From an uncultured Gemmatimonadales bacterium (GTDB lineage Bacteria; Gemmatimonadota; Gemmatimonadetes; Gemmatimonadales; Gemmatimonadaceae), in NCBI GenBank assembly GCA_963701965.1, contig OY969695.1:576001-640000 (forward strand): a stretch of DNA of 64,000 bases. Direction: 5' to 3'. Below the pieces are notes generated by a model that was given only the letters and a program-made list of their open reading frames with translations, was not told the DNA's origin and did not search any database. Below, one piece after another: positions 9,967 to 27,426 of the stretch. Made by a program: the position numbers and the translations under genes. How positions within the stretch are numbered: the stretch's first letter is position 1; every line of letters begins with the position of its first letter.

Positions 9967-10953
9967 CTATAGAGATCGTGGAGGCACTGGCGGGATCGTC
10001 GCCAACAGTGCGTCGATGGCCGCCTGGCGCGCTTGAGACTCGCTGGCTTCCTCCGCCGCGCGCAACGCGGCCAGACGTTCCCGGTCGCGGCGCCGCCGGG
10101 CGATGTACAAGGGCGTCAGCAGTATCAACATCAACAGGGTGACGGCGCTGAGATCGGTCACGAGCGCCAGGGCGCCGTAGCGATGGCGGATGCGCGTGCG
10201 CCAATCCCGCTCGAATGTTTCCAAGGGCTCGCCATAGGCGCGGCGCATGGCCCGGTCGAGCGAGCCGGTCGTGCGCCAGTCGGCGAGAAAAAACGCGAGA
10301 CCGTGGGCGGGGTCGGCCGCCGCGAGATCGGCGACCGCGCGATAGGCGAGCGCATAGCTGGCGTCCGCTTCCATCGCCGTGCCGGTCAGGCCGCTGTCGA
10401 CCGCGGCCAGGGACGGGGTGCCGCGCAGTGCCAGCGCGACGTTCGCCGCCAGCGCGTCGTCCCGTCCCAATTCGCCGGACGCATACGAGGCGTAGCCTTC
10501 ATCGAACCACCGCGGCACGGTCGCCGCGGTGTTCTCGCCGAAAAACTCGTGCAGCGCGAGATGCGCCAGCTCATGGCGCAGGGTGATCGACGGACTCCCC
10601 GCGGTCGACGGCGCCGACCGTCCCTGCAACACGATGCGATGCGTCTCCGGGAATGCCAGCGCCGCGCCCCACTCCGGCGCCGCCGGTCCCGCCCACTCGC
10701 GAAAACGCGCGCGATCGGGCGCGATCGCGATCACCACGTGCTCGCGCGGGAGCGGCAAGCCGGGAAAACTGTCGCGCCGCGCGGCCTCGGCGATGAGACG
10801 GTGCGCGAGGATGGTGTCGGCGCCGTAAGCGATCGCGGTGAAACGGCCCGCGTCGACGCGCACGGCGCGTCCGTCCTCCGCGGGCGCCGGAGCGACCGGG
10901 ACGGGTTGTTGCGCGGGCGATGGACTTTGTGAAGCGAGACCGAGCGCTACGAC
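9967..10953 (-). CDS. Peptidase MA-like (gluzincin) zinc metalloprotease with C-terminal TM anchor; start uncertain
   Basis: HELAH followed by PRWFDEGYA, C-terminal hydrophobic helix then RRRR. No clean in-frame start; a GTG at 10972 is in another frame. Confidence 0.7.
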   Translation of the reverse strand, partial: VVALGLASQSPSPAQQPVPVAPAPAEDGRAVRVDAGRFTAIAYGADTILAHRLIAEAARRDSFPGLPLPREHVVIAIAPDRARFREWAGPAAPEWGAALAFPETHRIVLQGRSAPSTAGSPSITLRHELAHLALHEFFGENTAATVPRWFDEGYASYASGELGRDDALAANVALALRGTPSLAAVDSGLTGTAMEADASYALAYRAVADLAAADPAHGLAFFLADWRTTGSLDRAMRRAYGEPLETFERDWRTRIRHRYGALALVTDLSAVTLLMLILLTPLYIARRRRDRERLAALRAAEEASESQARQAAIDALLATIPPVPPRSL

Positions 10954-11814
10954 GCGTGCGGAGGCTCGCCACCGGCGGCGACCGCTTCCAGCACCTCCGC
11001 GCAACGCTTGCCCCATGGATTGAACTTGTTCGCCGCGTGTCCGGCGCGCCACGCCTCGATCGCGCCGTCCGTCGCGCCCCCAAACCACCGCGCCCGGCCG
11101 AGCTCGTAGTAGGCTTCGATGAGGTTGGGCCCGAGCACCAGGGTCTTCTCGAAGAACGTCTGCGCATCTTCGTACATTCTCGCGCTCGAGATACACGAGG
11201 CCGAGATAAAAATGCGCGTAGAGCGTGGCCTTCTTGTCGTTGTCGAGCCGGATGGCCTTGGAGAGATGCTCGATGGCCTCGCCGAAGATGCGCTTCTTGA
11301 GGCAGATGTACCCGACGTTGATCCGGGCCAGCGCGTTGGACGGCTGCCGCATTAACACGCGCTGAAAGTTGAGCAGCGCGTCGTCGTATTTTTCCTGCAG
11401 CATCTGCGCCCAGCCCAACAACGATTCGGATTGCGGATCGTTGGGGGAGAGCTCCAGCGCTTTGGTCAGCGCCGCTTCCGCGCCCTCGTAGTCGCCGAGG
11501 GAGATGCGACTCCATCCCTTCTCGATGAAGGTGGAGGCCCCGATGTGATCGGCGTGCACCTGCGGCCGCTCGCCCGTGAACTGCGGGGCCACCGACGGCG
11601 CCACCGCTTGCTGCGCCGCCTTCCACTTGTCCACCAGCCGCTTGATGTCGTCCTTGAGCGACGACAGCTCGGCCACCCGCTGCTCGACATGCTTGTAGAG
11701 CGCGATGATCTCGCCCTTGAGCTGCTCCCGCGCTCCGTTCTGGGCTTCCGGCCCGTCGAGACGGGCATCGATCGCCGCGTAGCGCGACCTAAGTTCGGCG
11801 ACGTCGTCGGGCAT
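10947..11814 (-). CDS. Coiled-coil plus TPR protein; +1 frameshift at about 11178
   Basis: N-terminal coiled coil and about 5 TPRs. C-terminus in ORF 10947..11177. Confidence 0.8.
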
Positions 11815-11818
11815 ACGC

Positions 11819-12283
11819 CTACGCGGCGGCGTCGGCCAGCGTGAGCCGCTCGGTGGCGGTCAGCAGTTTGGTGACGTCGAGCAGCATGACCAACTTCTGG
11901 TCCCGCCGCACGATGCCTTTGAGGTACTCGCCCGCCAATCCGCGAAAGAGCGCCGGCGGCGGTTGGATCGCCGCGGCGTCCACGCCGCTGACGTCGAGCA
12001 CGGCGTCGACCACGCCGGCCACCCATTGGTCGCCCGCATTGAACACCAACACGCGCGTCTCGCTGGTGGCGTCCTGCGGCTCCATGTCGAAGCGCGTCCG
12101 CATGTCGATGACCGGCACCACGCGCTTCTGATACTCGATCACGCCCACGATCCACTCCGGCACGTTCGGCACCGTCGTCGCATCCTGGCGGCGCAGCACC
12201 CGCTCCACGCCGTGGATGTCGGCCGCGAAGAAGTCGCCCCCCAGCCGGAACGTGACGATCTGCACCAGCGTCGCCGTGCTCAT
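11819..12283 (-). CDS. cheW: Chemotaxis coupling protein CheW
   Basis: IVTFRLG, VPNVPEWIVGVI, VVPVIDMRTRF, GVVDAV. Confidence 0.9.
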   Translation of the reverse strand: MSTATLVQIVTFRLGGDFFAADIHGVERVLRRQDATTVPNVPEWIVGVIEYQKRVVPVIDMRTRFDMEPQDATSETRVLVFNAGDQWVAGVVDAVLDVSGVDAAAIQPPPALFRGLAGEYLKGIVRRDQKLVMLLDVTKLLTATERLTLADAAA

Positions 12284-12768
12284 GCGCTCTCCCCGGCCCG
12301 GTCCGCTGTGCACGCCGCGACCAGCGCCTCGATGTCGACGACCGCCAGCAGATGCCCGCGCGACGCGATGCCCAACACCATGCCCTGACCAGGCGTCGGT
12401 GTCAGCGTCTCGAAGTCGAACGCCTGCACGCCCTCCGCCTCATCGACGGCCAGCCCGATCCGCCGCCCGTCGCGCGTGCGCGCGACGATGACCTTGCGTT
12501 GCTCGCGGAGCCGCACGCCGAGCGCGGGGCCAGGGGTATGCACCGGCATGAGCGCTCCACGCAGCTCCGATACGCCGAGCATCGTCCCGGGACTCTGGGG
12601 GAGCGCGGTAACCGGCGGGACGTCGATGACCTCTTCGACGGCGGCCAGACCGACCGCAAAGCGCTCGCCGCCGGCGCGGAAGATGAGCAGGTCGACCACA
12701 CCCGAGCGACGGCGCACGGCTTCCCGCACGCCGTTCGCGTCGGCCAGGAGAAACGCCGCCGCGGTCAT
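12280..12768 (-). CDS. cheW: Chemotaxis coupling protein CheW (divergent)
   Basis: LLIFRAGGERFAV, LPQSPGTMLGVSELRG, IGLAVDEAEGV. ATGA overlaps on both sides. Confidence 0.8.
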   Translation of the reverse strand: MTAAAFLLADANGVREAVRRRSGVVDLLIFRAGGERFAVGLAAVEEVIDVPPVTALPQSPGTMLGVSELRGALMPVHTPGPALGVRLREQRKVIVARTRDGRRIGLAVDEAEGVQAFDFETLTPTPGQGMVLGIASRGHLLAVVDIEALVAACTADRAGESA

Positions 12769-13838
12769 CCCGCCCGCCCCGCCCCGGCCATCCGGTGCGC
12801 CAACAGGTCGACGACCGCCTGCGCCACATCCGTGAGGGCACTGACGCGGTCCGCACCCGCGGTCGCCAAGGCCGCCTGGGGCATGCCGTAGATCGTCGAG
12901 GTCATCTGATCTTGGACGACGGCCTGCCCCCCGGCGTCTCGGATCGTCCGCAGCCCCTCGGCCCCGTCCCGGCCCATCCCCGTCAAAACGACCCCTACGA
13001 CCGCCGAGCCGAAGATCTGGGCGGCCGACCGGAACAGCGGGTCGGCGGCCGGCCGGACCCCCCAGATCGGGGCGGCCGTATCCAACGTCAGTGTCGGGAG
13101 CCCGTGGCGGACCGCGACCCGCATATGATGCCCCCCGCGCGCCAGATAGACGCGGTTGTGCACGAGCCGGTCGCCGTCGCTGGCCTCCACCACGCGCAGC
13201 GCGCTCATGGCGTCCAACCGCGCCGCCAGACTGGCCGTGAACCCCCCCGGCATGTGCTGGACGACCAACACCGCGGCATCGAGCGTCGGCGGCAGGTTGG
13301 GGATGACCTCGGCCAGCGCCCGCGGTCCCCCGGTCGACGCGGCGATGGCCACGACGCGGGTCGCGCCACCGGTGCGCTCCTGCACGCGCACGGAGCCGGT
13401 GGACCGCCGCGGACGGGCCAGGACGTCGACGCCGGCGAGGTTCACGCACGCCGCGGCGCGCAACGCCTCCAGCAACCGGTCGCGCACCGAGGGCAGGTCG
13501 AGGCTCACCGGTCCCGATGGCTTGCGCACGAAGTCCACGGCGCCCAGCTCCAGCGCGCGCAGCGTCAACTCCCGCCCATCGTCTGTGCCGGCGGCGCTCA
13601 GCATCACCACGGGCCGCGGCGTCTCCGACATGATGTACCCGAGCGTCTGAATCCCATCCAGCTCGGGCATTTCGATGTCCAACGTGACGATGTCGGGCTC
13701 CAGCGTATGGATCTGCTTCAAGGCGTCGAAGCCGTTGCGCGCCGTCCCGATGACCCGAAACTCCCGCGAGGCGGAGATCAGCTCACCGATGACTTTTCGC
13801 ATGAAGGCACTATCGTCGACGACCAGGACGGTCTTCAC
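12765..13838 (-). CDS. cheB: Chemotaxis response regulator methylesterase CheB
   Basis: REC domain (VVDDSAFMR, LDIEMP) plus esterase motifs ASTGG, QHMP, LTGMGRDG. Confidence 0.96.
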   Translation of the reverse strand: MKTVLVVDDSAFMRKVIGELISASREFRVIGTARNGFDALKQIHTLEPDIVTLDIEMPELDGIQTLGYIMSETPRPVVMLSAAGTDDGRELTLRALELGAVDFVRKPSGPVSLDLPSVRDRLLEALRAAACVNLAGVDVLARPRRSTGSVRVQERTGGATRVVAIAASTGGPRALAEVIPNLPPTLDAAVLVVQHMPGGFTASLAARLDAMSALRVVEASDGDRLVHNRVYLARGGHHMRVAVRHGLPTLTLDTAAPIWGVRPAADPLFRSAAQIFGSAVVGVVLTGMGRDGAEGLRTIRDAGGQAVVQDQMTSTIYGMPQAALATAGADRVSALTDVAQAVVDLLAHRMAGAGRAG

Positions 13839-14317
13839 AGAATCTTTTCTGGCGACGACAGCGATTTGACCACCACCCGCCCATTGCGGATGTGCAAGTA
13901 CACGCTGCGCCCGTACGATCCGCCGGTGTCCTGGGCCACGAGCGAGATCTGCGCCATCCCCAGCGCCCGCCGGCTCGCCTCGACGTTGCGGTCACCCATA
14001 TTCACGCCGCCAGCGGGCAGGAGCGACGTGAACATGCTGGCGCCACCCACGAGCTTGGCCTGAAACGGCCCGCGCGCGCCCAGCTTGCGCATCTCCTCCA
14101 GCAGCAGGGGCACGGCGCTGGCGGGGAACTTGGCGCGGTTGTGCGTGTCGCGCGACATCCCTTCCGTCGGCAACAAGATGTGGGCGAGGCCGCCCACCTG
14201 CGCGACCATGTCGTAGACGGTGATGGCGACGCACGAGCCGAGGCCGATCGTGGCAATGATCGCATCGCCACGGGCCACGGCGTAGTCCGCCACTTTGACG
14301 CGAATGGTATCGATCAC
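13835..14317 (-). CDS. cheD: Chemoreceptor glutamine deamidase CheD
   Basis: TIGLGSCV, GLAHILLP, AKLVGGASMF, DTGGSYGR. Confidence 0.93.
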   Translation of the reverse strand: MIDTIRVKVADYAVARGDAIIATIGLGSCVAITVYDMVAQVGGLAHILLPTEGMSRDTHNRAKFPASAVPLLLEEMRKLGARGPFQAKLVGGASMFTSLLPAGGVNMGDRNVEASRRALGMAQISLVAQDTGGSYGRSVYLHIRNGRVVVKSLSSPEKIL

Positions 14318-15120
14318 CGGCGGCGGAAGATGCGCTCGCGTGCGTCGACCGGCTCGAACAACGAGCGCGTGGCACCGAGCAGAGTTTCGACTTTGCCCAG
14401 CACCAAAAAGCCGCCGGGCACCAAGGCTTCGTGAAATCGGACGAACAACTGCTCCTGCGTGGCACGATCGAAATAGATGATCACGTTCCGGCAGGTGATG
14501 AGGTTCAGGTTCGACGGCGCCGGCCCCTGGATCAGATCGCGCCGCTCGAATCGCACCATGGGACGGAGATCGGGGCGCACCGCGTGGGGAGCCGTGGCGC
14601 CAAAGTAGGCGGCCCGGAGGTCGGCCGGCGTGTCGGTGAACGCATCTTCGTCGAACGTGGCTTCCGCCGCCGCCAGGAGACTGGCCCGGTCGATGTCGGT
14701 CCCCAGGATCTCCACGCGCCCCAGCCGGTGGAGCTCGCGCTGGGTCTCGGCATGACGGTGGACCATGACGGCCAACGAATAGGGCTCCTCGCCGGACGAG
14801 CATCCGGCGCTCCACACGCGAAGCTGGGCCGGCGCCTCCTGCCAGATGACGGGAATGACCTGCGCCGACAGCGCGTCCCACATCTCCCAGTTGCGGAACA
14901 ACTTCGTGACGTTGATCGTGAGCGTATCGAGCAGTTTCTCGTACTCGCGCGCGTCCACGTCCAGGAGCCGCCCGTAGTCGGCATAGCTCACGAGTCCGCG
15001 CGCCCGGAGTCGCACGCCGATGCGGCGCCGCAAGCACTTTTCCTTGTAGTGCTGGCAGTGAAACGACCGTTCGGCGGCGATCTTGACCAAGAGGGCCTGG
15101 AACTCGGCGTCGTCGCTCAT
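14314..15120 (-). CDS. cheR: Chemotaxis methyltransferase CheR
   Basis: TINVTKLFRN, WSAGCSSGEEPYS, GTDID, CRNVIIYF. Confidence 0.95.
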   Translation of the reverse strand: MSDDAEFQALLVKIAAERSFHCQHYKEKCLRRRIGVRLRARGLVSYADYGRLLDVDAREYEKLLDTLTINVTKLFRNWEMWDALSAQVIPVIWQEAPAQLRVWSAGCSSGEEPYSLAVMVHRHAETQRELHRLGRVEILGTDIDRASLLAAAEATFDEDAFTDTPADLRAAYFGATAPHAVRPDLRPMVRFERRDLIQGPAPSNLNLITCRNVIIYFDRATQEQLFVRFHEALVPGGFLVLGKVETLLGATRSLFEPVDARERIFRRR

Positions 15121-16733
15121 CCGGCCCGCCGCACCGTTTCGAGATTCTTGCGAATGATCGCGTTCGCCGGCTCCAGCTCCAGAGCCCGCTCCCAGGACTT
15201 CACGGCTTCGGCCGTCTCCCGCCGCCGGTAGCGAATGTTGCCGATCTTGAAGAAGACATCGTCGCCCAGCGATGGATTGATGCGCGTCGCGCGCTGATAG
15301 GCGTCCAGGGCCTCGTCGTACTGGCCCGACCGATAAGCATAGTCGCCCGAATTCTTGTGCAACTGGGCCAGCGCCGGATCCTCGGCGGTGCCCCGCTCCA
15401 CGCTGGAGGCGGCGTCGGCCCACCCGCCCCGCCGCTCGTGCACGGCGGCGAGATTGTTGAACAGCGCCGCGGCGTGGGGATGGTGTCCGATTCCCTCCGC
15501 GAGCAAGTCCGCGGCGCGCGGCAAATCCCCGACCAACGCCGCGGCCAAACCCGCGTAGTGGAACCACGCCGCTGGCGGCGGCCGCTTGCCCCACAAGGGC
15601 CGGGTCGCCGACAGGACCGCATCGGCCTGGGCCACTTCGCCCGCGCGCAGCGCGAGCGCCCCGTACAATGTGCGCACCTGCGGCGTGTTCCCCGCGCCCC
15701 GCTTCACGGCCTCATCGAGTGCCTGACGCGCCTCCTCATAGGCACCCAGCCGTTCATAGGCATACGCGAGATTGTGAAAGACGGCGGCCCTGGCGCCAGG
15801 GGCGGCGGCCGCCTCCCGATACACGTCGGCGGCGGCCGGCCACTTGCCCTGCCGCATGAGGACCAGGCCCAGATAGAACGCGGCGCTGGCGTCGCTCGGT
15901 CGGAGCTCGGCCACCCGGCGGAACTCCCGCACGGCCTCCTCCAGCATCCCGGTCTTGTAGAACGCGATACCGAGATTGCGGTGTTCCTCCACCCGCGCTT
16001 CGGAGACCAGCGGCTCCGACTTGCTGGTCCCCACGCGATGCAGGAATCCGGCGGACGAGAGCGCGTACAGCGCTTTGCCGACGTCGAATTCCCCGAGTCC
16101 GCTGGCATCGACCAGGGTCGTCACGTCGCGCACGCCGTCGATGACGTCGAGGAGGATCTCCTGCTGCATGGTGAGCGACACGCCGCTCTGGCGAATGCGC
16201 TCCCGATCCACGTCGAAGACGAGATCGAAGCTGGGGATCTTCTTGCTGATCAGACTCCATTCATCGACGCGCCGCGCGCCTTCGAGGAGCAACGACTCGG
16301 GGTTGATCGAGACGATGAAATCCTGTTCCTCGGGGCGAATGTCCGCCTCGAAGTTGAACGTCCCCTGCGTCCACGTGAACAGGAAATAGACGGCGTCTTC
16401 GATCTGCGTGCGGACCTGCGCGTGGAGCTCGTCGCGCGAAACGAGCCCCTGGGCCACCAGGATGTCGCCGAGGCGCTTGTCCCGATACTCGGCCTGCGAA
16501 CCCACGGCTTCGTCGATCTGCTCGCGCGTGATGAGTCCCGCTTTGATGAGCAACTCGCCCAGACGGTCGCGCCGGTTCACGATCGACGCGAAGGCGATGC
16601 GCCCGCGCTCGAAGTAGATGTAGCCGAAGTTGTTGCGATGCGTGACGCTCAGGCACCCGGTCTTCTTGCCCATGGCCAGGAGCTGCAGGACGTCCGGGAG
16701 ACTGGCCTCTTTGAGGCTGCCTTTTATCGCCAT
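15117..16733 (-). CDS. DUF4388 (PATAN/PatA-N-like) domain plus TPR protein
   Basis: MAIKGSLKEASLPDVLQLL..KKTG, RLGELL, FTWTQGTFNF, LLLEGARRVDEW, then multiple TPRs. Confidence 0.85.
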   Translation of the reverse strand: MAIKGSLKEASLPDVLQLLAMGKKTGCLSVTHRNNFGYIYFERGRIAFASIVNRRDRLGELLIKAGLITREQIDEAVGSQAEYRDKRLGDILVAQGLVSRDELHAQVRTQIEDAVYFLFTWTQGTFNFEADIRPEEQDFIVSINPESLLLEGARRVDEWSLISKKIPSFDLVFDVDRERIRQSGVSLTMQQEILLDVIDGVRDVTTLVDASGLGEFDVGKALYALSSAGFLHRVGTSKSEPLVSEARVEEHRNLGIAFYKTGMLEEAVREFRRVAELRPSDASAAFYLGLVLMRQGKWPAAADVYREAAAAPGARAAVFHNLAYAYERLGAYEEARQALDEAVKRGAGNTPQVRTLYGALALRAGEVAQADAVLSATRPLWGKRPPPAAWFHYAGLAAALVGDLPRAADLLAEGIGHHPHAAALFNNLAAVHERRGGWADAASSVERGTAEDPALAQLHKNSGDYAYRSGQYDEALDAYQRATRINPSLGDDVFFKIGNIRYRRRETAEAVKSWERALELEPANAIIRKNLETVRRAG

Positions 16734-16734
16734 C

Positions 16735-18615
16735 TCACCGCCACTCCTCGATTACCCGCCCCGAGAGCTCGGGCCAGTCCCAGATCACCTTCTCGTCGTC
16801 GAGGAAAAACGCGTCGACTTCGGCGGCCGCGGGCGGCGGCACCCGCGCCGCGCCGGGGCCCTCCAGCTCCGTCTGTGCCAGATCGAGCGTCACCGGGACG
16901 CCGGCCATATCGGCCGCCGCCACGAGTCGGCTCGTCAGCCCGGCGATCTCGCGAACGCTCGCGACGGGCCGATCGGCCAGATACATCACGAGCGCGGGCT
17001 CGGGCTCGATATCGACCCGCGCCAGATAGCGGGCGTATAACTTCTCGCGCAGTCCACGGTCCGGCGGCTGAATCACCACCACGAGCCCGCCCTCGAACCG
17101 CGAGCGCAACCGCTCTTCCAAATCCTCCAGCTCTTTGGGCGGACGGTCGCTGGACAGCACGACCTGCTTGCCCTGCGCGTACATATCGTTGAAGACGTGG
17201 AACAGCTCTTCCTGCGTGCGCTCCTTGCCCGCGAGAAAATGCACGTCGTCGATGAGCAACGCGCCCGCGGCCCGGAACCGGGCCCGCCAGCGGTCGACGG
17301 TGCCTTCCTGCAGCGCTTCGATCAGCCCGTCGACGAACTGTTGGGCGCCCAGGCAGGTCGCCAACGGCAGCCCGTTCCCAATGGCGTGCAACAAGTGCGT
17401 CTTGCCCACGCCGCTCGGGCCGTAGATGAAGAGCGGATTGTAGCGGCGGCCGGGATCGGCCACGATCGCGTCCGCCGCGCGCACGGCGAGTTGATTGGCG
17501 GCGCCCACTTCATACTCATCGCGCGTGAACTCCGGCGACGGGCTGGCCGGAGGCATGTCGCCGGCCTTGGCCTTGGCCACCAGCGCTTCGGCGGCGGCGA
17601 CCGCCAGGGGATCGCGAAAGACCTCGTCCCCACCGAGGGCGGCGTCGACTTCGGTGGCTTCGGCTTCCAGCACCCGCAGCTGATCGACGGCGAGCGCATA
17701 CTCGGCCAGCACCGCCTCGACATCGGGCGGCGTGGACGCGCCGAGGAGCCGCTCGAGCTGGACGACGCGATACCCTTCGCCGCGCCAGTAGGCGATACCC
17801 TCGGCCAAACGGACCCGCCACGCGTTCTCGCTCACGACGCGTTGCACGCCCGTCAGGAAGGCGTGATACCCCCCGCCCTCGGCGCCGCCATGCCGCCCGT
17901 TGACCGGGCCGCCGAGGACGAGCGCCACGTCGCCGACCGTCAGCTCGCCGGCCTCCAGCGATTGATGGGCGATGAGCCGGTTGAGCGCGCCCTGCAGCTC
18001 GCGGACGTTGGCGAACGTCATCCGGGCCAGCGCGTCGAGGACCCCGGCGGCGAACCGGACGTCGCGCTCCTCGCACTTGCCGCGGAGAATCGCGACGCGC
18101 GTCTCGTAGTCCGGTGAGCCGATGTCGACGATCAGGCCGCCGGAGAGGCGGGTCAGCAAGCGCTCGTCGACATCGGCGATGTCCGTGGGAGGCCGGTCGC
18201 TGGTCATCACGACCTGGCGGCCGCCACCCTGCAAGGCCATGAACAACCGGAGCATCTCGCTCTGGGTCTCGCGGCGTCCCGTGAGAAACTGGACGTCGTC
18301 CAGCAGCAGCAGATCGACGTGCTGGTAGCGTTGCCGGAAGGGATCGGCCTGCCCGGTGGACACGGCGGCGTGGAGCTGCCGCACGAATTCGTCGAGCGTG
18401 AGATAGTCGACGACGAGCGCCGGTTGCACGGCGAGGGCCTGATGGGCGATCGCGCTCATCAGGTGCGTCTTGCCCAGCCCCGACCCGCTGTAGATGAAGA
18501 GCGGGTTGTACGCGCTGCCGGGCGATTCGGCCACGGCGCGGGCCGCCGCCACGGCCAGCCGGTTGGCCGAGCCGACGACGAAGTTGTCGAACCGGTAGCG
18601 GGCCACGCCGGTCAT
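16735..18615 (-). CDS. Tandem DnaA/Hda-like AAA+ ATPase (two domain-III modules, no domain I or IV)
   Basis: Two copies of F-x-x-F/Y-x-VG-x-AN, YNPLFIY-x-x-SG-x-GKTHL, DDV-x-FL-x-G, SDRPP, RL-x-x-R and VRE. Confidence 0.88.
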   Translation of the reverse strand: MTGVARYRFDNFVVGSANRLAVAAARAVAESPGSAYNPLFIYSGSGLGKTHLMSAIAHQALAVQPALVVDYLTLDEFVRQLHAAVSTGQADPFRQRYQHVDLLLLDDVQFLTGRRETQSEMLRLFMALQGGGRQVVMTSDRPPTDIADVDERLLTRLSGGLIVDIGSPDYETRVAILRGKCEERDVRFAAGVLDALARMTFANVRELQGALNRLIAHQSLEAGELTVGDVALVLGGPVNGRHGGAEGGGYHAFLTGVQRVVSENAWRVRLAEGIAYWRGEGYRVVQLERLLGASTPPDVEAVLAEYALAVDQLRVLEAEATEVDAALGGDEVFRDPLAVAAAEALVAKAKAGDMPPASPSPEFTRDEYEVGAANQLAVRAADAIVADPGRRYNPLFIYGPSGVGKTHLLHAIGNGLPLATCLGAQQFVDGLIEALQEGTVDRWRARFRAAGALLIDDVHFLAGKERTQEELFHVFNDMYAQGKQVVLSSDRPPKELEDLEERLRSRFEGGLVVVIQPPDRGLREKLYARYLARVDIEPEPALVMYLADRPVASVREIAGLTSRLVAAADMAGVPVTLDLAQTELEGPGAARVPPPAAAEVDAFFLDDEKVIWDWPELSGRVIEEWR

Positions 18616-18619
18616 GCGG

Positions 18620-19225
18620 TCAGGCCCGCGCCGGTGCCGGCGCGCTCAGGCGCTTGAGGACCAGCTCCGAGATGCCGCGCAGCGTCTCGAACACGCCGGC
18701 GCCGTGCATGGCATCGGCGGCGTAGTGCGGAACGCCGCGAAAGTTGAGCGCGTCCTCCAGCGTCTCCTCGTCGAGGATGAGATCGCGCGGCAGGTCCTGC
18801 TTGTTGTACTGCAGCACGAGGGGAATGCTGCGGGGATCGACGCCCTGCTCGGCGAGGTTGGCGTGCAGGTCCTGGAGACTCTCGACGTTTTCCTCGAGCT
18901 GCCGGGCCTGGCTGTCGGCCACGAACACGATGCCGTCGGCGCCCTGCAACACCAGCTTCCGCGTCGCCTGATAGTAGATCTGGCCGGGCACGGTATAGAG
19001 CTGGATCTTGGTCGTGAAACCCGAGATCGAACCGAGGTCGAGCGGCAGAAAGTCGAAGAACAGCGTGCGGTCGGTCTGCGTCGCCAACGACACCATCTTG
19101 CCTTTCCGGTCGCCCGGCACCTGCCCGTAGATGTAGTGCAAGTTCGACGTCTTCCCCGACCGTCCGGGGCCGTAGTAGACGATCTTGCAGGTGATCTCGC
19201 GGGTGGCGTAGTTGACGAGCGACAC
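18620..19225 (-). CDS. mglA: MglA-family small GTPase
   Basis: KIVYYGPGRSGKTSNL, DRTLFFDF, LYTVPGQ, GADGIVFVADS, YNKQD. Confidence 0.93.
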   Translation of the reverse strand: MSLVNYATREITCKIVYYGPGRSGKTSNLHYIYGQVPGDRKGKMVSLATQTDRTLFFDFLPLDLGSISGFTTKIQLYTVPGQIYYQATRKLVLQGADGIVFVADSQARQLEENVESLQDLHANLAEQGVDPRSIPLVLQYNKQDLPRDLILDEETLEDALNFRGVPHYAADAMHGAGVFETLRGISELVLKRLSAPAPARA

Positions 19226-19230
19226 GGGCG

Positions 19231-19701
19231 TTACCGGCTGAACAGCAGCTTGAGGTTGCGATCGAGCTCGGACTCGAAATTCTCGGCGAGGACATCCAGC
19301 GCATCGCCGGTACTCGCCGGCGCCGCGTCGCCGAGGCGGGTGGTGAACTCGTCGTAATACAGCTGCACCAAGCCCAATGAGCTGGCCTGATCGAAGACCG
19401 TGAGGAAGACGTACGGACCGCGCGGCGTATCGGCGCGGGCCAGGAAAAGCTGCCGCCGGCGGCCGGCGTGATGCAGGCCCGCGAAGGGCCGGCCCTGCAG
19501 CAGCATGCCGAGCTCGGTCGACGAGGCGTGGATGGCCGCCGCCAAGGCGCACGCCGACATGACGTCGACGGCCCGCGCGAATCCGTGCTGCGCGAGCACT
19601 TGGCCACTCGGCGTCAGCAGCAGCGCCAGTACCGCCTGCGCGTCCTCGACGAAACGGCGCAACGGAGCCTCGACCCACCGCTCGACGACGGCCATCGTCA
19701 T
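19231..19701 (-). CDS. mglB: Roadblock/LC7 protein, MglB-like
   Basis: Directly upstream of mglA. FDQASSLGLVQL and the terminal LKLLFSR helix resemble MglB. Confidence 0.8.
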   Translation of the reverse strand: MTMAVVERWVEAPLRRFVEDAQAVLALLLTPSGQVLAQHGFARAVDVMSACALAAAIHASSTELGMLLQGRPFAGLHHAGRRRQLFLARADTPRGPYVFLTVFDQASSLGLVQLYYDEFTTRLGDAAPASTGDALDVLAENFESELDRNLKLLFSR

Positions 19702-20051
19702 GTGGGGAGCCCGGCCACGGCCCGCAACAACTCCACGCGCAACCGCCCGACCCCGACGCGGGTGTCGGTCACCAGGACCACCACGAGGTCATCGCGGCCG
19801 GCCATGCACAGGCGGCCACTGTCGGCGATCAATTCCAGATAGCGCACGCTCCCCAGACCCGCGGCGTCGGACGATTGCCGCGCCCGCCGATACAGCGACG
19901 CGGCCAGGGCGGCGACGACCGGGGACTTCACGGACGTCTGCACGACCGCGTCCACGACGATGCCGTCGTTCTCGCTCACGATGAGACCGCCGAGCACGCC
20001 GCGTTGCCGCGTGAGGTGTTCGAGGCTGGCGATGTACGGGGACGGCGTCAC
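19698..20051 (-). CDS. Roadblock/LC7 domain protein (MglC-like)
   Basis: GVLGGLIVSENDGIVV, AALAASL, VGVGRLRVEL. Confidence 0.8.
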   Translation of the reverse strand: MTPSPYIASLEHLTRQRGVLGGLIVSENDGIVVDAVVQTSVKSPVVAALAASLYRRARQSSDAAGLGSVRYLELIADSGRLCMAGRDDLVVVLVTDTRVGVGRLRVELLRAVAGLPT

Positions 20052-20992
20052 GCCAGTCGCTCCATCCACAAGCGGGCCCGCTCCGCCACGCGCTCCAGCG
20101 CGCGGCGCACCAGTCCCGAGGGCACGCTGGGCGCCGCGGCGACCAACGCCAGCCCGTCGTGCGGCGCGGGCGTCATCGCCACGGTGGCCGCCTCGGTCTC
20201 GAAGACGATCGTGCGCCATTCGCCGAGCGGCAAATGCCGCATGGCCCGGCGGGCTTCGTCGCTCACACCCGTCAGCGCCGCACCCACCTCGGCCCCGACG
20301 TCGTGTCCGCCATCCACGACGTACTGTCCGGCCAAGACCAGTCCGTCCTCGTCGAGGAGCAGCGCCGCTTGGTCGGACGTGCCGATCACATCGGCGAAAA
20401 GCTGCCGCGGGTCGTCGGCAAACATGTCGACCGCCGGCGTCTCAGAGCCATCAGATCCGTCGTCATCCGGCCTCACGACCGGGAGCGCGACACCGGCCGG
20501 CGTCGGGACGCCCGCCGCAGGCGTGGTGTCGTCCACCGGGAGCGCCGCGGGCGGCGTCGCGTGCTTGCCATTGGTCGCTGGCGGCGCCAGCTGGTCCCGC
20601 ACGCGCGCCAGCGCGGCGGCGAGCCCTTCGTCTTCGGCACCGGCCACCGCGGCCTGGGCGAGATAGTGCTCGGCGTCGGCGAGCCGACCTTGGCTGAAGC
20701 ACACGAACCCCATGCCCTTGAGCGCCCCAACGTGCCCGGGCGCACAGCGCAGGGACACGTCCCACTCGTCGAGCGCGCGCTCGATCTCTCCGCGATCCAC
20801 GCAGATGCGCGCCAACAAGTCGTGGGCATCGGCGTCGTACGGATGCCGCTCCAGCCCGCGCACCGCCACCCGGAGCGCCAGGTCGACCTGTCCGCTGGTG
20901 CGCAGCGCTTCACCGAGCGGCAAGAAGACCATGCTCGCCGGGTTTCCGGCCAGCTCGTCGCTCCAGCGACGGACGTCGTCAGGCGCCGACAT
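20048..20992 (-). CDS. TPR plus Roadblock/LC7 fusion protein
   Basis: N-terminal TPRs, Pro/Asp-rich linker, C-terminal ALLLDEDGLVLAG...GLVRRALE roadblock pattern. Confidence 0.75.
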   Translation of the reverse strand: MSAPDDVRRWSDELAGNPASMVFLPLGEALRTSGQVDLALRVAVRGLERHPYDADAHDLLARICVDRGEIERALDEWDVSLRCAPGHVGALKGMGFVCFSQGRLADAEHYLAQAAVAGAEDEGLAAALARVRDQLAPPATNGKHATPPAALPVDDTTPAAGVPTPAGVALPVVRPDDDGSDGSETPAVDMFADDPRQLFADVIGTSDQAALLLDEDGLVLAGQYVVDGGHDVGAEVGAALTGVSDEARRAMRHLPLGEWRTIVFETEAATVAMTPAPHDGLALVAAAPSVPSGLVRRALERVAERARLWMERLA

Positions 20993-22127
20993 AACCCTCG
21001 ACGAACCGATCGAGCCTGAGCGCCGATGCGACGGCCTCCCGAATGTCCGGCGCCGTCGGCGCCGTGGGGGCGGTGTCGAGGAACTGCTGCCAGCTGGCCA
21101 CGGCCCCGCGGAAGTCCCCCTGACACAATGCCGCGAGTCCCAGCTCCAGCTGGATGTTCGGATGCGCCGGATCGGCATCCGCCGCCCGCCGCAACTCGTC
21201 GCTGGCCTCGGCGTACCGCCGCATGCGCCGCAGGGCCCGCGCGGCCATGAGCCGGGGCGCCGGCGCCCGCGGGTCCATGGCGATCGCCGACCGTGCCGCG
21301 TGGAGTGCTTCGTCCAACATCCCGGCCCCCAAAGCCACTTCCGCCATCTCCAGATAGACTCCCGAGTCCGGCACGATGGCGGTATTGACCACCGGCGTGA
21401 GCGTGCCGCCGCGCAGCTCGACGACGCCGGTCGTCATCAATCCATAGACCACCTTCGCGATGTCGAACTCGCTGCGCCCCAGGGCGCCCGCGATGCCGCG
21501 CAGGTCATTCACCCCATCGATGATCGCCAGCACCTCCCACTCGCTCGGCAAGAGGTCGAGCTGCGTCGGATGGTCGTCGTGGATCGACGCCAGCACGGGC
21601 ACGACGCCCAGGTGCGGGACCTTGTCGGCGATGCGGCTCCACTCGTCAATGCGCCGCGCGCCTTCCATGAGCAACGACTCGGTCGAGACGTGGACCGCCG
21701 CCTCCAGCTCCACGCTGCCGACGTCCCGCTCCTCGAAGGAGAAGAACCCCTCGCGCCAGGACATGAGCTCGAACACCACCGTCTCGATCTGGAGGCGCAC
21801 CTGCCGCTCCAGCTCCCGCGTGCTGATGGCGCCGATGGCGACCAGGATGTCGCCAATGCGCCGGGCGCCGTTCTCCTGTTCCTGCATCTCCCGCGCCTTG
21901 CCCAGATCGCGTTCGCTGACGCGGCCCGCGCGCACCAGCATGGCGCCCAGGGGGTTGGGACTGGACCGGATCTGCGCCGAGATCACGCGGCCCCGGTCGA
22001 ACTGCACCGCGCCCTCGTTGTCCCGGAACGCGGACGTCACGCGCAGCGCGCCCGTCTTCCGGCTCAGGTCGAGCAACTGGAAGACATCGTGGATGCTGAG
22101 TTCCCGGAGCGGTCCTTCGATCGCCAT
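20979..22127 (-). CDS. DUF4388 (PATAN-like) domain plus TPR protein, second paralogue
   Basis: MAIEGPLRELSIHDVFQLL..RKTG, MSWREGFFSF, LLMEGARRIDEW, C-terminal TPRs. Confidence 0.85.
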   Translation of the reverse strand: MAIEGPLRELSIHDVFQLLDLSRKTGALRVTSAFRDNEGAVQFDRGRVISAQIRSSPNPLGAMLVRAGRVSERDLGKAREMQEQENGARRIGDILVAIGAISTRELERQVRLQIETVVFELMSWREGFFSFEERDVGSVELEAAVHVSTESLLMEGARRIDEWSRIADKVPHLGVVPVLASIHDDHPTQLDLLPSEWEVLAIIDGVNDLRGIAGALGRSEFDIAKVVYGLMTTGVVELRGGTLTPVVNTAIVPDSGVYLEMAEVALGAGMLDEALHAARSAIAMDPRAPAPRLMAARALRRMRRYAEASDELRRAADADPAHPNIQLELGLAALCQGDFRGAVASWQQFLDTAPTAPTAPDIREAVASALRLDRFVEGYVGA

Positions 22128-22130
22128 CGC

Positions 22131-24858
22131 TCAGCGCCCTCCCGCCGCGACCGCGGCGCCGCCGCTGGGGCGCCGGCCATTGGTGAAGATCTGCGCCAGA
22201 TCGGCCGCGGTGCGGCCATCGCGCCGGGCCCGCCGGCCGTACGTTCCCTCCGGCTCCAGCGCCACCACCTGATCCCAACGCTCGATCGCTTCCCGGAACC
22301 GGTGCTGCTCGGCCAAGAGCGCGCCCTCGTAGTACAGCGCCGCCGGATGCGCCGGATCCATGCGCGTGAGCCGCGCGAAGGCCAGCGCCGCGTCCTTGCG
22401 GCGTCCCATTCTCGAAGAGCAGCTCCCCGAGCGCCAACAGCGCCGCGATCAACGTCGTATCGCGCTCCAGGAGCTCGATGATGACGCGGAGCGCCGCTTC
22501 GCCGCGTCCCGTGCGCCGCCACAAGCCCGCCAGCTCCAGCGACGCGTCGACATAGGTGGGGACGGCGTCCAGCGCCGCCAAGAGCTCGGACTCGGCATCG
22601 CTGTCGTGGCCTTCGGCCACGAGTAGCTTCGCCAGCTCGTATCGCACGATCGCCAAATCCCCGTCCAGGGCCAGCGCGTCGTAGTACGCCGTTTGCGCGC
22701 CTGCCCGGTCACCGCGCGCCCGCAAGACATCGCCGATGCGCTGCGCGATATCGGCGCGCTGCGGCGCGAAGCGCCGCGCGCGGGTGAGTGCTTCCAGCGC
22801 GGCGTCCGGGTCCCCAGCGGCGGAACGGGCGGCGCCGGCCAACAGCAGCGCCTCCGGGTCCTCGGGCGCTCCGGCCAGCACGTCCTCCGCCACGGGGCGG
22901 GCGTCCGCGGCACGGCCGAGCGCGATCAACGCCCGCGCCTCGCCCATCATGGCCCGGGCATGGCGCGCGTCGATCCGGCGCGCCTCCCGATAGCGCTCCA
23001 GCGCCTCGCCGTGCAGACCCTGACGGACGAAGACGTCGCCCATGAGGGTCAGGCCATCGCCGCGATCGCCGCCGCGGAGCAACGCGCGGCTCACTTCGGC
23101 CGCGGCGCGATCGTAGAGCCCCTTCGACAGATAGTCGGACGCCATCGCGTACGCGTGACCCCCGCTCGGCGCCGGCGCCGCGGCCGGCGTGTCGGACGGC
23201 GTCAGGGTTGTGAACAACGAGTCGAGCAGCGCCGCGTCGAACGCGAACTCCTCGATGGGCGCCGACGTTTGCCGCGCGCCGCCCAGGTCGGGCACGATCG
23301 ACAGGTCGGGATCCTCGTACTGCAGATCGATCGCCAGCTCGAATTTCTGCGGCACGTAATACGGATCCAACTCCAACGCCCGTTTCGTCTCCCGCAGCGC
23401 GCTGTCGAAATCGCCCAGGTTGGAGAGGGCAAAGCTCAGATTGTAGTGCGCCTCGGCGAAGTTCGGCCGGCTCTGCGTCGCCCGCGCGAACGCGTTGCGC
23501 GCTTCCTCGAACTTGCGCAGGTCGGTCAGCACGAGCCCCACGCCGTTCCAGGCCACGGCGTGCTCCGGCGCGTCGAGCAGCACCTGACGAAACGCTTCCA
23601 GGCTCTGTTGGAGGCGTTTGCCCTTCATGAAGAGCAGCGCCAGGTTGAGCCGCGCCTTGACGAACGTCGGCGCGACGTCGAGGGCGCGGTGGAACGCCTC
23701 GGCGGCGGCTTCGGCATCGCCGGCGTGATAGTGGGAGACGCCCAGATTGTTCGACGCCAGCGCATACCGGGCATCGGCCTCCAACGCCCGCGCATAGCAG
23801 GACGCGGCATCCGCGTAGCGTCCGTCCTGGTGGAGCGCGACGCCCTTCTCGTTCCAGAGCTTCGGGCTGTCCGGTTGCCCCTCCAGCAGCTGGTCGTAGG
23901 TGGCGACCGCCGCGGCCACGTCTTTGCGGAGGAGATGCACTTCGGCGATCGCCTGCTGGACGAGGGCCGGATCCTCTCCGCGTTCGATCGCCAGTTGATA
24001 CTCGCGCAGCGCCTCGACGTAGTACCCTTTCTGACGAAACGCCAGACCCAGGTTGAAGTGCGCCAGCTGCCCCTCTTCGGCGACCGTCATGCGCTCGACG
24101 TGGGTCGGCCCCGAGATGCGGCGCAGCGCGCTGCCGTTCTCCAGTGTCAGATTGGCTTGGGCCCGCGACAGCGTCGGGTTGAGCCGGACGGCGCGCTTGG
24201 TGGCTTCCCGCGCCTCATCGTGGCGGCCCATGTCCCCGAGGACAAATCCCATGAGATAATGGGCGTCGGGATTGTCCGGGTTGCGCTCGATCGCCCGATG
24301 GAGCGCCGCCAGCGCTTCATCGTTGAGACCCCGGTTATACAGGACCTCGCCGACGTAGAAGTGGATCACCGAGCTGTCGGGGTCCAGCGCGCGGGCCCGC
24401 TCGAACCACTGCTGCGCGTTTTCCAGATCGCCGCTGGCCTTCTCGGCGAGGCCGAGCTGCACGATCGCGCCCAGGTCGTCCGGATGGTGGCGGAGCAGCT
24501 CGTTGAATTCGGTGACCGCGTCGGCCAGCCGGCCCAGGAGCGCGTAGGCCCGGCCCAGTTCCCATCGGGCGTCGCGATCCTCGGGGGCCGCCCGCAAGCG
24601 CTCCCGCAGCTCCCCCACGCGACGGTCGTAGTACCCGGTGTTGAAGTAGGCGATTTCCAGGTTGCGCTGCGCGACCTGCATCTTGTGGTCGAGCTCCAGC
24701 GCCCGCGAAAACGCCTCCACGGCCTCCTCGTGCAGGCCTTTGTGGTAGTACAGCACGCCCAGATTGTTGTGCGCACCCGCATCCGATGGATCAATGCGGC
24801 GCGCGAACGAGCGCAGGACCTCGCGGTCCCGCTCGGACATCAGTGGGGGCGTGCCCAC
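22131..24858 (-). CDS. Large cytoplasmic TPR-repeat protein (about 900 aa); +1 frameshift at about 22410
   Basis: Many TPRs (AHNNLGVLY, AHFNLG, AWNGVG, AHYNLS). C-terminus in ORF 22131..22409. Confidence 0.85.
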
Positions 24859-24873
24859 GGTCGGCTCCCGCCC

Positions 24874-25494
24874 CTACGCGACCTTGACGGCGCGCAGAAT
24901 GGCGTGCAGCGAAGCGACGTCCGGCAGGAGGAGGAAGAAGCCCCGCAACCGCTCGTTGAAATCCTGCATGTAGAACTCGCTCTCCACGCAGAACACGTAG
25001 TCCCGGTCGGTGCCAAACTGCAGATACGCCGTCGAGAGCACGGCGCTCGACATGTCGACCGCCAGACTCGGTGGGCTCGGCAACAGCATCAGGCCCATAA
25101 AATCGCTGAGGGCGTTCATGTAGGCCCCACTCAGGATATTGCCCGCCTCTTTGATCGCCGATTGTTCCAGCTCGCCGAGATCGGCATCGGGTTTCGCCTG
25201 GCGGTTCAACATGAGATCCGACAAGCGGAGCGCGGTCGGCCGCGGAAACACGAGCAGCGTACGCCCGGTCAGGTCGCCCAGCATGTTCATGAGCACGGCT
25301 GCCACCGGCTCCTCGGGGCCCGACACCTGCGGGGGCACGTCTTCGAGGCGGGCAATGTTGATCGTCGGCACGCTGATCATGATCGTGTTGCCGGTCATCT
25401 GCGACAACGCCGTGGCCGCGTGGCCCGCGCCGATGTTCGCGACCTCCCGGAGCGCGTCGAGCTGGATCGCCTTCAACGAGCGAATGTCTTCCAT
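24874..25494 (-). CDS. cheC: CheY-P phosphatase CheC
   Basis: Two E-x-x-N sites: DALREVANIGAGHAATALS and SAIKEAGNIL. Confidence 0.93.
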   Translation of the reverse strand: MEDIRSLKAIQLDALREVANIGAGHAATALSQMTGNTIMISVPTINIARLEDVPPQVSGPEEPVAAVLMNMLGDLTGRTLLVFPRPTALRLSDLMLNRQAKPDADLGELEQSAIKEAGNILSGAYMNALSDFMGLMLLPSPPSLAVDMSSAVLSTAYLQFGTDRDYVFCVESEFYMQDFNERLRGFFLLLPDVASLHAILRAVKVA

Positions 25495-25509
25495 TGATGC
25501 CTCTATGCC

Positions 25510-27420
25510 TCAGAAAAGACTGCCCACATCGACGATCAAAGCCGGCGCGCCGTCGCCGAGGATCGTCGCGCCGGTGAACAACGTCAGACCGCCCCGCACC
25601 CCATCGAACTGCTTCACCACGATTTCCTGCTGCCCGGGGAGCTCGTCGACCACGACCGCGACCTCCCGATCGGCCAGCTCCACGACCACCGCCTGCTCGG
25701 CCTCGGCGCCAACCCGGTCGCCAAGGGCCGGCAAGCCGACCACGTCGCGCAGCCGGACGAGCGGCATCACCACATCCCGGAGCACCAACACCGGCTTCCC
25801 TTGCAGCGTCGACAGGGTCACCGCATCGAGCGAGATGGTCTCCCGCACGTGGGCCATCGGGATGGCGTAGACCTCATCGGCCACCTTCGCCAAGAGCGCC
25901 CGCATGATCGCCAGGGTCAACGGCAACCGCGCCGTGACCGTCGTGCCCCGCCCCGGCGCCGTCCGAATGTCCAGCGAGCCGCCGAGCGCCCGCACCCGGT
26001 TCTGCACCGCATCGATCCCGACGCCGCGCCCCGAGATCTCGGTCACGGCGTCGGCCGTGGAGAACCCGGGACGCGAGATGAGCCGCATGAGCTCATCGTC
26101 CGACAGCTCGGCGGCACTCGCCTCGACGAGACCCGACTCCCGGGCCTTGCGCAAGACTTTGTTCCGATCGATCCCACGGCCGTCATCGGACACGCGAATC
26201 AGCACGTTCGCCCGGTCCCGGGCCGCGCTGAGCGTGAGGCGCCCCATGGGCGGTTTGCCGCCAGCGGTCCGCTCGGCGGGCACCTCGATACCGTGGTCGA
26301 CGGCGTTCCGGAGGAGATGGACGATCGGATCGCCAATCTCGTCGAGCATCGACCGATCGAGCTCGATCTCCTTGCCCTCGATCTCCAGCGTCACGTCCTT
26401 GCCCAGCAACCGGGCGGCGTCGCGCACCATCCGCGGGAACCGGTCGAAGACCTGCCACACCGGGACCATGCGGCACGTCATGATCTCGTCCTGCAGGTCG
26501 GTGATGAGGCGTGAGGCCTGGGCCAGCGCCTCGTCGAGCGCGGGATGCCCGATCTCGCGTCCCAGCTCGGACAAGCGGCCGCGGGTGATGACCAGCTCGC
26601 CGATCAGGTTCATGAGCGAGTCGAGGCGGCGGAGATCAATGCGCACGTGGCGCTGCTTCTGGACGCCGGTGGCCTCGTCCCCGATCGCCTGCAGGGCGAC
26701 CGTTTGGCGCGCACTGGCGCCTGGCGCGGGCGTCGCGTCTGTGCCCAGATGCACCGTCCCCACGTCGCCCGCGCTGCGCAGGACCCGCTCGATCTCGGCC
26801 GGCGGCGCCGCCGTGACCACGGTGAACTCGAAGACGCCGTCGAACGCCTCCTCTCCGAACGCCGACTCGTCGGGCGTGATGCCGGCGACTTCGCCGAGCG
26901 TGCGGGCCTTCTGCAGGACCAACACCGCGCGGACGCCGGGCAGCGGCGCGCCATCGGCGATGGCGACGCGCACGACGACGCCCAGGGCGTGGGACACGCG
27001 CTTGGCGCGCGCCTTCGGGGCCTTGGCCGTCGGGGGAGACGGCGCATCGCCCGAGAGCGCGCGCAGACGTTCGATGATCTTGGCGACTTTGACGCCCGCT
27101 CCGCCGGCGACGGCGGCTTCGATCGCCGCCTCGAGGGTGTCGGCGGCTTTGAACATGGCGTCCATCACGCCCGACGTGATCGTGAGATCGCCGCGGCGGA
27201 CCCGCTCCAGCAGCGTCTCCAGCACGTGGGAGAGGTCGGCGACCTCGGTGTAGCCCATCGTCGCGCTCATGCCCTTCACCGTATGTACGGCGCGGAACAA
27301 CGCGCCTACGGTCTCGGCCGTCCCCCCGCTCCGCTCCATCTCGAGCAGCGCATGGTTGATGGCCGACAGGTGCTCACGGCTCTCCGTGAGAAAGAGCTCG
27401 GCGTAGCGCGACGTTTCCAC
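25510..27420 (-). CDS. cheA: Chemotaxis histidine kinase CheA
   Basis: Hpt (FRAVHTVKGMS), P2, dimerization LDSLMNLIGELVI, HLLRNAVDHG, DDGRG, GFST, SGRGVG, CheW-like P5. Confidence 0.97.
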   Translation of the reverse strand: METSRYAELFLTESREHLSAINHALLEMERSGGTAETVGALFRAVHTVKGMSATMGYTEVADLSHVLETLLERVRRGDLTITSGVMDAMFKAADTLEAAIEAAVAGGAGVKVAKIIERLRALSGDAPSPPTAKAPKARAKRVSHALGVVVRVAIADGAPLPGVRAVLVLQKARTLGEVAGITPDESAFGEEAFDGVFEFTVVTAAPPAEIERVLRSAGDVGTVHLGTDATPAPGASARQTVALQAIGDEATGVQKQRHVRIDLRRLDSLMNLIGELVITRGRLSELGREIGHPALDEALAQASRLITDLQDEIMTCRMVPVWQVFDRFPRMVRDAARLLGKDVTLEIEGKEIELDRSMLDEIGDPIVHLLRNAVDHGIEVPAERTAGGKPPMGRLTLSAARDRANVLIRVSDDGRGIDRNKVLRKARESGLVEASAAELSDDELMRLISRPGFSTADAVTEISGRGVGIDAVQNRVRALGGSLDIRTAPGRGTTVTARLPLTLAIMRALLAKVADEVYAIPMAHVRETISLDAVTLSTLQGKPVLVLRDVVMPLVRLRDVVGLPALGDRVGAEAEQAVVVELADREVAVVVDELPGQQEIVVKQFDGVRGGLTLFTGATILGDGAPALIVDVGSLF

Positions 27421-27426
27421 GGGACG

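Follow-up and report, generated by a model that had tools for sequence, protein, structure and literature searches.

We describe a protein that contains the AAA+ core of the replication initiator DnaA twice and is likely a signalling adaptor, not a replication protein. The tandem protein (626 aa) is encoded on the minus strand at positions 16735–18615 of the window, the whole stretch of 64,000 nucleotides from an uncultured Gemmatimonadales bacterium that was analysed. In a reading that we consider reasonably probable, its C-terminal tail would hold a PATAN-MshEN-TPR protein, and ATP-dependent head-to-tail assembly would cluster or release this partner, as part of a system of Che proteins, MglA, and c-di-GMP that probably directs type IV pili. 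If true, the ATP-driven filament core of a replication initiator has found a second use unrelated to DNA metabolism: it switches assembly in a polarity pathway of the Gemmatimonadota, a phylum of abundant, little-studied soil bacteria.

The open reading frame, Pfam, and our own profiles reveal two complete DnaA-type modules. Walker A is found at residues 43 and 399, Walker B at 103 and 453, the sensor I sequence SDRPP at 139 and 489, RLLTRL at 152, RLRSRF at 502, and the sequences NVRE and SVRE at 203 and 553, with an acidic/aromatic tail starting at 603; every motif named in the original prediction is present. Pfam assigns Bac_DnaA to two stretches of the protein (E = 3.9e-107), and DnaA_N and Bac_DnaA_C are absent among the 15 Pfam families at E ≤ 0.01, as had been expected. 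Profiles of DnaA domains IV and I, built from 22 and 24 true DnaAs, respectively, detected E. coli DnaA as a positive control (8.7e-34 and 2.7e-14) and gave best E-values of 2.4 and 7.5 against 53 tandem proteins, which amounts to no match, in agreement with the predicted lack of both domains. An hhalign comparison of the linker with domain IV returned a probability of 0.4%. With Pfam, our own profiles, and hhalign all negative, a hidden DNA-binding domain in the tandem protein was rejected.

AAA+ module 1 (res. 6–220; 17956–18600, minus strand, as for all domains of the protein) has a conserved nucleotide site and changed ssDNA residues, and module 2 (res. 361–585; 16861–17535) combines an invariant arginine finger and box VII with a nucleotide site that varies within the family. 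Between the modules are helix 1 (res. 249–263; 17827–17871), which bears an amphipathic EFxxFLxDVxxxV motif retained in the mini-proteins described below, and a helical linker domain (res. 265–351; 17563–17823) with a W..EGY..L...DP pattern. The chain ends in a Trp tail (res. 603–626; 16738–16809), the predicted ligand of a TPR groove. The AlphaFold2 model (mean pLDDT 86, pTM 0.49) is confident for the two AAA+ modules, whose mutual arrangement is not settled at this pTM, and for the linker domain (pLDDT about 90), and less so for the tail and for a helix at 250–263 that stands apart from the linker domain. The helical linker originally predicted is thus helical indeed, but consists of a folded domain (res. 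265–351) and a separate, less confident helix. This domain gave no usable match to PDB sequences (best E 0.024) or in the ESM Atlas, and Pfam searched with 42 linker rows returned solely a weak ABC_tran_CTD match in 15 of them (best E 0.0011).

Both modules correspond to domain III of DnaA, the AAA+ domain with Walker A/B, sensors, and arginine finger, and are 40–45% identical to the DnaA of the same genome and of E. coli. Relatives of the tandem protein are named DnaA in databases because it exceeds the curated TIGR00362 cut-off (513 versus 343.9 bits; Pfam PF00308 family), a possible pitfall for annotation and for studies based on marker genes. The tandem protein differs from DnaA in the lack of domains I and IV, in having two modules, and in its novel helical domain and tail, and its gene lies in a che/mglA operon (C1:592.7 kb), whereas the canonical dnaA-dnaN locus is elsewhere in the genome (C1:2.64 Mb). 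Hda, as presented in the accessible text of PMC5397184, is also a DnaA paralogue without a DNA-binding domain, and module 2 resembles an arginine-finger donor, with the finger conserved in 39/39 copies of module 2 and 38/39 copies of module 1. In contrast to this likeness, the tandem protein is only 22% identical to E. coli Hda, scores 160.4 against a cut-off of 194.8 in the Hda model TIGR03420, and falls far below the cut-offs of other Hda models. The N-terminal clamp-binding motif of Hda (QLSLF/QLSLPL; same accessible text) has no conserved counterpart in 39 tandem proteins, which contain four scattered, chance-like matches. A quick tree, in which Hda is a long branch, joined it to neither module. 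By sequence, then, the tandem protein is neither DnaA nor Hda.

Conservation of individual residues suggests how the two modules may cooperate. We use the numbering of B. subtilis DnaA (8btg) and residue roles taken from the available portions of PMC6669920 and bioRxiv 2022.03.18.484894, with positions assigned to either the finger face or the nucleotide face by our own reading of a figure legend. The tandem alignment comprises 39 proteins, obtained by de-replicating 52 published rows at 80%. Module 1 keeps Walker A/B in 39, sensor I in 37, sensor II in 38, F218 in 36, G317 in 38, and R321 in 32 proteins; at its interface, R206 is not conserved and H231 is replaced by Arg, and its ssDNA positions carry His at I190 (29/39) and Arg or Gln at K222. 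Module 2 displays the reverse picture: R260 and R264 are kept in all 39 proteins, L269 in 38, R202 in 37, R206 in 35, and H231 in 26, but sensor I has drifted to 25, sensor II to 30, F218 to 13, and G317 to 24. The modules had been described as intact, which is accurate for the copy in the window but not for the family, where the nucleotide site of module 2 is partly eroded. The finger face of module 2 persists even in the proteins in which the Walker motifs of this module are dead (3/39). Relatives with a single module (44 non-redundant proteins) keep Walker A/B, sensor I, R260, R264, L269, F218, and G317 in 44/44, sensor II and R321 in 43/44, H231 in 36/44, and R206 in 31/44; they have lost I190, K222, and T225, with a six-residue gap at this site in 12/12 rows among those listed. 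In phylogenetic trees, each module of the tandem protein forms a firm clade (100/100), and the single forms join module 1. Support for a sister relationship of modules 1 and 2 through internal duplication varied: it received 85/78 in one tree, was unresolved in a second, and was not recovered in a third.

We infer from this pattern that the two faces are shared out, module 1 providing the nucleotide site and module 2 an arginine-finger face that would serve module 1. The pattern fits a DNA-independent, self-assembling ATPase whose chains may still extend because module 1 keeps its own finger. The same residues would allow co-assembly with DnaA, which brings in an improbable alternative: the tandem protein would join, cap, or inactivate DnaA filaments in an Hda-like manner through the finger of module 2, tying replication to polarity, and the tail would merely localise it. 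The finger-face residues of module 2 (R202, R206, H231, R260, R264, and L269) and F218, G317, and R321 of module 1 are kept as this alternative would have it, but self-assembly requires them as well, and the single-module relatives keep them and yet lose the ssDNA motif. Should the modules pack against each other within a chain, module 1 onto module 2, both outer faces would be DnaA-like. Each module also has the identity to the DnaA of the genome given above, and in tandem-bearing lineages module 2 keeps the ssDNA residues along with the finger face of DnaA. Against this stand the lack of a conserved clamp-binding motif, the Hda model score below cut-off, and domain II of Gemmatimonadales DnaA, which is alike with or without the tandem protein. 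Capping of DnaA filaments is therefore unlikely.

The adaptor model does not explain why module 2 retains the ssDNA residues of DnaA, namely I190 (Ile or Val in 37/39), K222 (25/39), and T225 (Thr or Ser in 30/39). These residues would be accounted for if module 2 still bound single-stranded nucleic acid and the protein reported ssDNA, be it incoming DNA or the state of replication, to the pilus system. We regard this as very unlikely: these residues are gone from module 1 and from the single-module family, so that at most every second subunit would bind, K222 is Thr in 10/39 proteins, and the protein is net acidic.

The tandem gene sits in an operon-like run with the order cheW, cheY, cheA, cheC, a large TPR gene, a PATAN-TPR gene, three Roadblock genes, mglA, the tandem gene, a PATAN-TPR gene, cheR, cheD, cheB, cheW, and cheW. 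Specifically, Pfam identifies, on the minus strand throughout, the upstream genes cheC, cheA, cheY, and cheW (24874–28265), the large TPR gene and the second PATAN-TPR gene (20979–24858), three Roadblock/LC7 (MglB-like) genes (19231–20992), of which the last has TPRs and two give weak Roadblock matches, mglA for a small Ras-like GTPase (18620–19210), and the downstream cheR, cheD, cheB, cheW, and cheW (11819–15120). The intergenic gaps originally reported, 4 bp on the mglA side and 1 bp on the side of the DUF4388 (PATAN) gene, are confirmed. Adjacent PilB/PilT-type ATPase genes occur in the source genome, the one genome in which pilus ATPases were checked. The che operon (window 9967–28265) has CheA, three CheW, CheR, CheB, CheC, and CheD, but the 18 genes scanned there include no chemoreceptor; nine MCP matches lie elsewhere in the genome, as does a second che cluster near fliG. 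A second mglA paralogue, 50% identical, is located at G000:C1:1026086–1026760 and is common across the order. Two probable assembly indels affect the operon: the large TPR gene (window 22131–24858) loses its reading frame towards the end, and a single ORF (window 9967–11814) covers the coiled-coil TPR and peptidase-MA genes, which are separate in relatives.

The family is widespread in the phylum. Named relatives of the tandem protein are Gemmatimonadota, and the linker profile matches 201/301 Gemmatimonadota genomes (197/297 when four unpublished genomes are left aside), with 55/70 and 121/125 in the two largest families and 0/17 in other classes. These matches rule out an assembly artefact absent from relatives. 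Kinship among the genomes makes this and all other counts given here non-independent. A PATAN-TPR gene lies directly downstream in 48/48 tandem loci (L006–L052 and L064, some of which repeat a genome, with L023 from an unpublished genome), and mglA lies upstream in 47/48, the one exception beginning at a contig end. The protein at this position takes several forms. One module with linker and tail is found in L145, L146, L155, and L167, and 71 such proteins of 380–402 aa were found; L156 has one module and a tail without the linker; module 1 is degenerate in L133, L158, L169, and L170; and module 2 has dead Walker motifs in L129–L131. Genera with three matches were considered as carriers of split genes, which was rejected, as the matches lie in one open frame with insertions (G125 has a frame break). 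In L147–L149 and L203, which belong to other classes, the gene for a single module with a tail of the W-x5-R-x2-E type is followed by a TPR-only gene, away from the che/mglA operon. When these deep-branch single forms were used as search queries, just one or two Gemmatimonadota loci were found. In the deeper classes (L162–L164, L202, L203), the single-module and TPR-only genes adjoin, by eye, dapF-like and glycosyltransferase-like genes, again outside the che/mglA operon.

At the far end of this range, 23 loci in five genera encode mini-proteins of 60–83 aa that consist of helix 1 and the Trp tail, the AAA+ module being gone. Of the 30 loci that the search returned, 6 matched the tail only; the other 24 fitted the mini profile over its full length, and one of these, an unpublished locus, was set aside. 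A wider search with the mini profile added just three longer proteins, all DnaA-type. The mini-protein gene directly precedes the PATAN-TPR gene in 23/23 loci, and the gene upstream is mglA in 16, cheC in 5, and mglB in 2, leaving 7/23 without an adjacent mglA. In genera g22 and g10, both motifs have uncorrected pN/pS values of 0.17–0.22 (22 mini-protein sequences in all), compared with 0.50–0.54 in genus g5, where selection is weak; pooled values are 0.33–0.35 for the motifs against 0.60 for the spacer. The mini-proteins are under purifying selection. In the tree of the partner protein, mini lineages nest among tandem-bearing lineages, and the mini-proteins therefore represent losses of the AAA+ modules. 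The tree needs two changes, which would mean two origins of the mini-proteins, but a single origin is not rejected (p-AU 0.17). The MshEN insert of the partner is deleted in 18 of 20 readable mini loci and kept in the other two.

The AAA+ ATPase is thus not an irreducible part of the tandem family, whose members have two, one, a degenerate, or no module. This bears on the core function first proposed for the protein, a covalent pseudo-dimer that caps or regulates DnaA filaments, which is not supported in view of the 23 mini loci without AAA+ modules in which the gene is still under selection, the loss of the ssDNA motif in single-module relatives, and the lack of a conserved clamp-binding motif. 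It bears equally on a remodelling activity, in which hydrolysis would pull apart or reload a PATAN-TPR/MglA/Che complex rather than only cluster it. AAA+ proteins often remodel docked substrates, and the catalytic residues of module 1 are near-invariant (Walker A/B 39/39, sensor II 38/39), but the operon is retained by forms without an ATPase, module 1 is degenerate in the four loci given above, and modules of the DnaA clade form open filaments and not threading rings; we rate this activity as rather improbable. At the opposite extreme, the AAA+ modules could be inert bulk or decaying relics, with helix and tail alone mattering and the tail serving in part as the ribosome-binding site of the next gene. 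The modules are indeed repeatedly lost or decayed, and the EE codons of the tail overlap a Shine-Dalgarno-like GAGGAG of that gene, with GAG as the codon of E623 wherever a tandem tail retains this residue, L131 excepted; because of this overlap, the EE residues are weak evidence for a tail function. The tail Trp, Pro, and Arg, however, fall outside GAGGAG and are not explained by it, the region before GAGGAG is under selection, and the residues for catalysis and the finger hardly vary from order to order, which makes the relic explanation most unlikely.

The predicted partner of the tandem protein is the PATAN (DUF4388)-MshEN-TPR protein of 538 aa encoded directly downstream (15117–16733, minus strand). 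Inserted in its PATAN domain is a tandem MshEN c-di-GMP motif (res. 57–80 and 87–110; 16404–16565, minus strand), with two 24-residue RLGxx(LVI)(LVI)xxG...Q motifs separated by a spacer of 6 residues instead of the canonical 5 (motif definition from the accessible text of PMC5013675); the protein passes NF053729 with 50.7 bits against a cut-off of 38. We surveyed 26 linker-positive genomes and 52 genomes chosen as linker-negative. A PATAN-TPR orthologue is found in 26/26 of the former and 14/52 of the latter, and in these 14 a member of the tandem family lies directly upstream in every case. The genes proposed or implied as partners fare less well. MglA, the partner implied in the original prediction, is not a constant neighbour and was rejected as obligatory, being missing beside the gene in some loci (the 7/23 mini loci above). 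CheA was rejected in the same way, as 11/66 genomes keep the tandem-family/PATAN-TPR pair without the cluster's cheA, and so were flagella, as FliG was not found in 17/31 genomes possessing the cluster's cheA (66-genome set; as these are MAGs and kin, not found does not equal absent). The sole constant neighbour of the tandem family is the PATAN-TPR gene, not mglA, cheA, or flagella.

We modelled the complex of a relative's mini-protein with its own partner (L154), standing in for the pair of the window. The ipSAE is 0.76, compared with 0.02 for the best of three controls; the mark applied is reached by 116/157 solved pairs and 2/215 mismatched pairs, a calibration that transfers only roughly to the alignments used here. 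Runs agree in at least 92% of contacts, and the pLDDT of the partner is at least 72. In the model, tail residues 33–38, 42–51, and 53–60 lie in TPR residues 231–436, and helix 1 is outside the named interface. Conservation is higher for polar residues of the TPR interface (0.71, n = 19) than for the remaining polar residues of the TPRs (0.50, n = 51; naive permutation p 0.0002), and a comparison of all residues gives 0.64 for the interface versus 0.57 for the rest (p 0.024). The conserved polar interface corresponds to R294, N321, H392, N426, N427, E433, Q457, K460, N461, and D464 of the window's partner. TPR grooves accept many peptides, and groove asparagines are conserved across many TPR proteins, so the interface conservation is partly a trait of the TPR family. 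The model predicts that the tail of the tandem protein docks in the TPR groove of its partner. Together with a gene fixed directly before the PATAN-TPR gene, this supports the other half of the original prediction, an initiator-clade ATPase repurposed for signalling.

In the adaptor model, the Trp-containing tail would bind the TPR groove of the protein whose gene lies 1 bp downstream. The arginine finger of module 2 would complete the ATP site of module 1, within one chain or between chains. ATP-bound assembly would present several tails and so cluster the partner, which hydrolysis would release. The partner would bind c-di-GMP through MshEN and relay the Che/MglA signal through PATAN to the type IV pilus motor, a step that is probable by analogy. 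Where the AAA+ modules have been lost, the two short motifs would act as a constitutive adaptor. With the predicted peptide–TPR interface and a natural deletion series that runs from two ATPase modules through one or a degenerate one to none, the function is testable with two small proteins.

The closest parallels come from two polarity and motility systems. In Myxococcus, the MglA system sets the pole of type IV pili, MglA acting via the TPR protein SgmX, and it shares with the operon described here a small GTPase, Roadblock and TPR proteins, and a chemosensory system; the accessible text of this source mentions no DnaA-derived ATPase (PMC7519303). Unlike SgmX, the TPR protein here carries PATAN and MshEN, and all parts are in one operon. 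In cyanobacteria, PatA-type regulators likewise use PATAN/DUF4388 as a chemosensory output: PATAN of Synechocystis binds PilB1, and PatA-type PATAN also binds PilC, according to the available part of bioRxiv 10.1101/2021.06.11.447907. There, however, the arrangement is PATAN-REC, whereas here PATAN is fused to TPRs predicted to hold the tail of an AAA+ adaptor. The mglA gene is a known neighbour of PATAN genes (PMC4316618, whose main text, as far as available, contains neither DnaA nor Gemmatimonas). The literature searched, mostly outside subscription papers, contains no description of the tandem family.

The linker-type unit extends beyond this protein. A linker profile search over 1.84 billion representatives returned 472 proteins. 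Among the best 150 of these, 123 have one or two linker copies, 90 of them together with an AAA+ module, and the remaining 27 repeat the unit at least three times and match the profile without its tail part. Three proteins fuse the linker to other domains, which argues that it is portable: P0195 has linker and tail fused to a TPR domain in place of the AAA+ module, P0207 has both on an unnamed Cys-containing domain, and P0200 has the linker alone on such a domain. Five giant proteins of 1084–1420 aa (P0092, P0099, P0102, P0112, and P0216) contain five to seven linker-type repeats followed by one DnaA AAA+ module, with domain IV absent, and some of them end in zinc ribbons. Helical repeats can match by composition; the W..EGY...L...DP pattern is nonetheless visible in the repeats examined. 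The DnaA modules of the giants are DnaA-like at 18/18 scored positions and in a quick tree group together in a clade separate from both module 1 and module 2. One cluster of repeat proteins is named as a Thermoplasmata DUF835 protein, and the shared repeat is what suggests that the giants are probably archaeal. A PATAN-like N-terminus in the giant repeat proteins was not supported (hhalign probability 0.7%). It is a tentative thought, and one we would sooner doubt than adopt, that signalling has repeatedly taken over the filament-forming AAA+ core of DnaA as a polymerisation module switched by ATP and independent of DNA. The Gemmatimonadota proteins would couple it through a TPR-docking tail to a c-di-GMP/pilus scaffold, the probable Thermoplasmata giants would have acquired their module separately, and the helical unit with a DnaA module would define an unrecognised class of localisation scaffolds in bacteria and archaea.

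The genome also shows peculiarities in DnaA itself. The canonical dnaA (L002:1033–2601; G000:C1 about 2.6425 Mb) has a frame change inside domain IV, probably an assembly indel. A third dnaA copy (L003:1435–2505; G000:C1 about 2.722 Mb) lacks domain I, keeps domain IV, and has Gln in place of the arginine finger; it is divergent from a Ku-like gene, by eye, and nests within the DnaA of the order. A link between the tandem protein and a QMD[LF]F motif of true DnaA was rejected, as the motif is kept in 5/5 genomes without the tandem. True DnaA of the window's order has QMD[LFI]F at the start of domain II in 13/13 copies (L002, L124–L128, L137, L138, and L215–L219), and eight DnaAs of other orders or classes lack such a motif there. 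The motif resembles a beta-clamp-binding motif, and DnaA of this order may bind the clamp itself.
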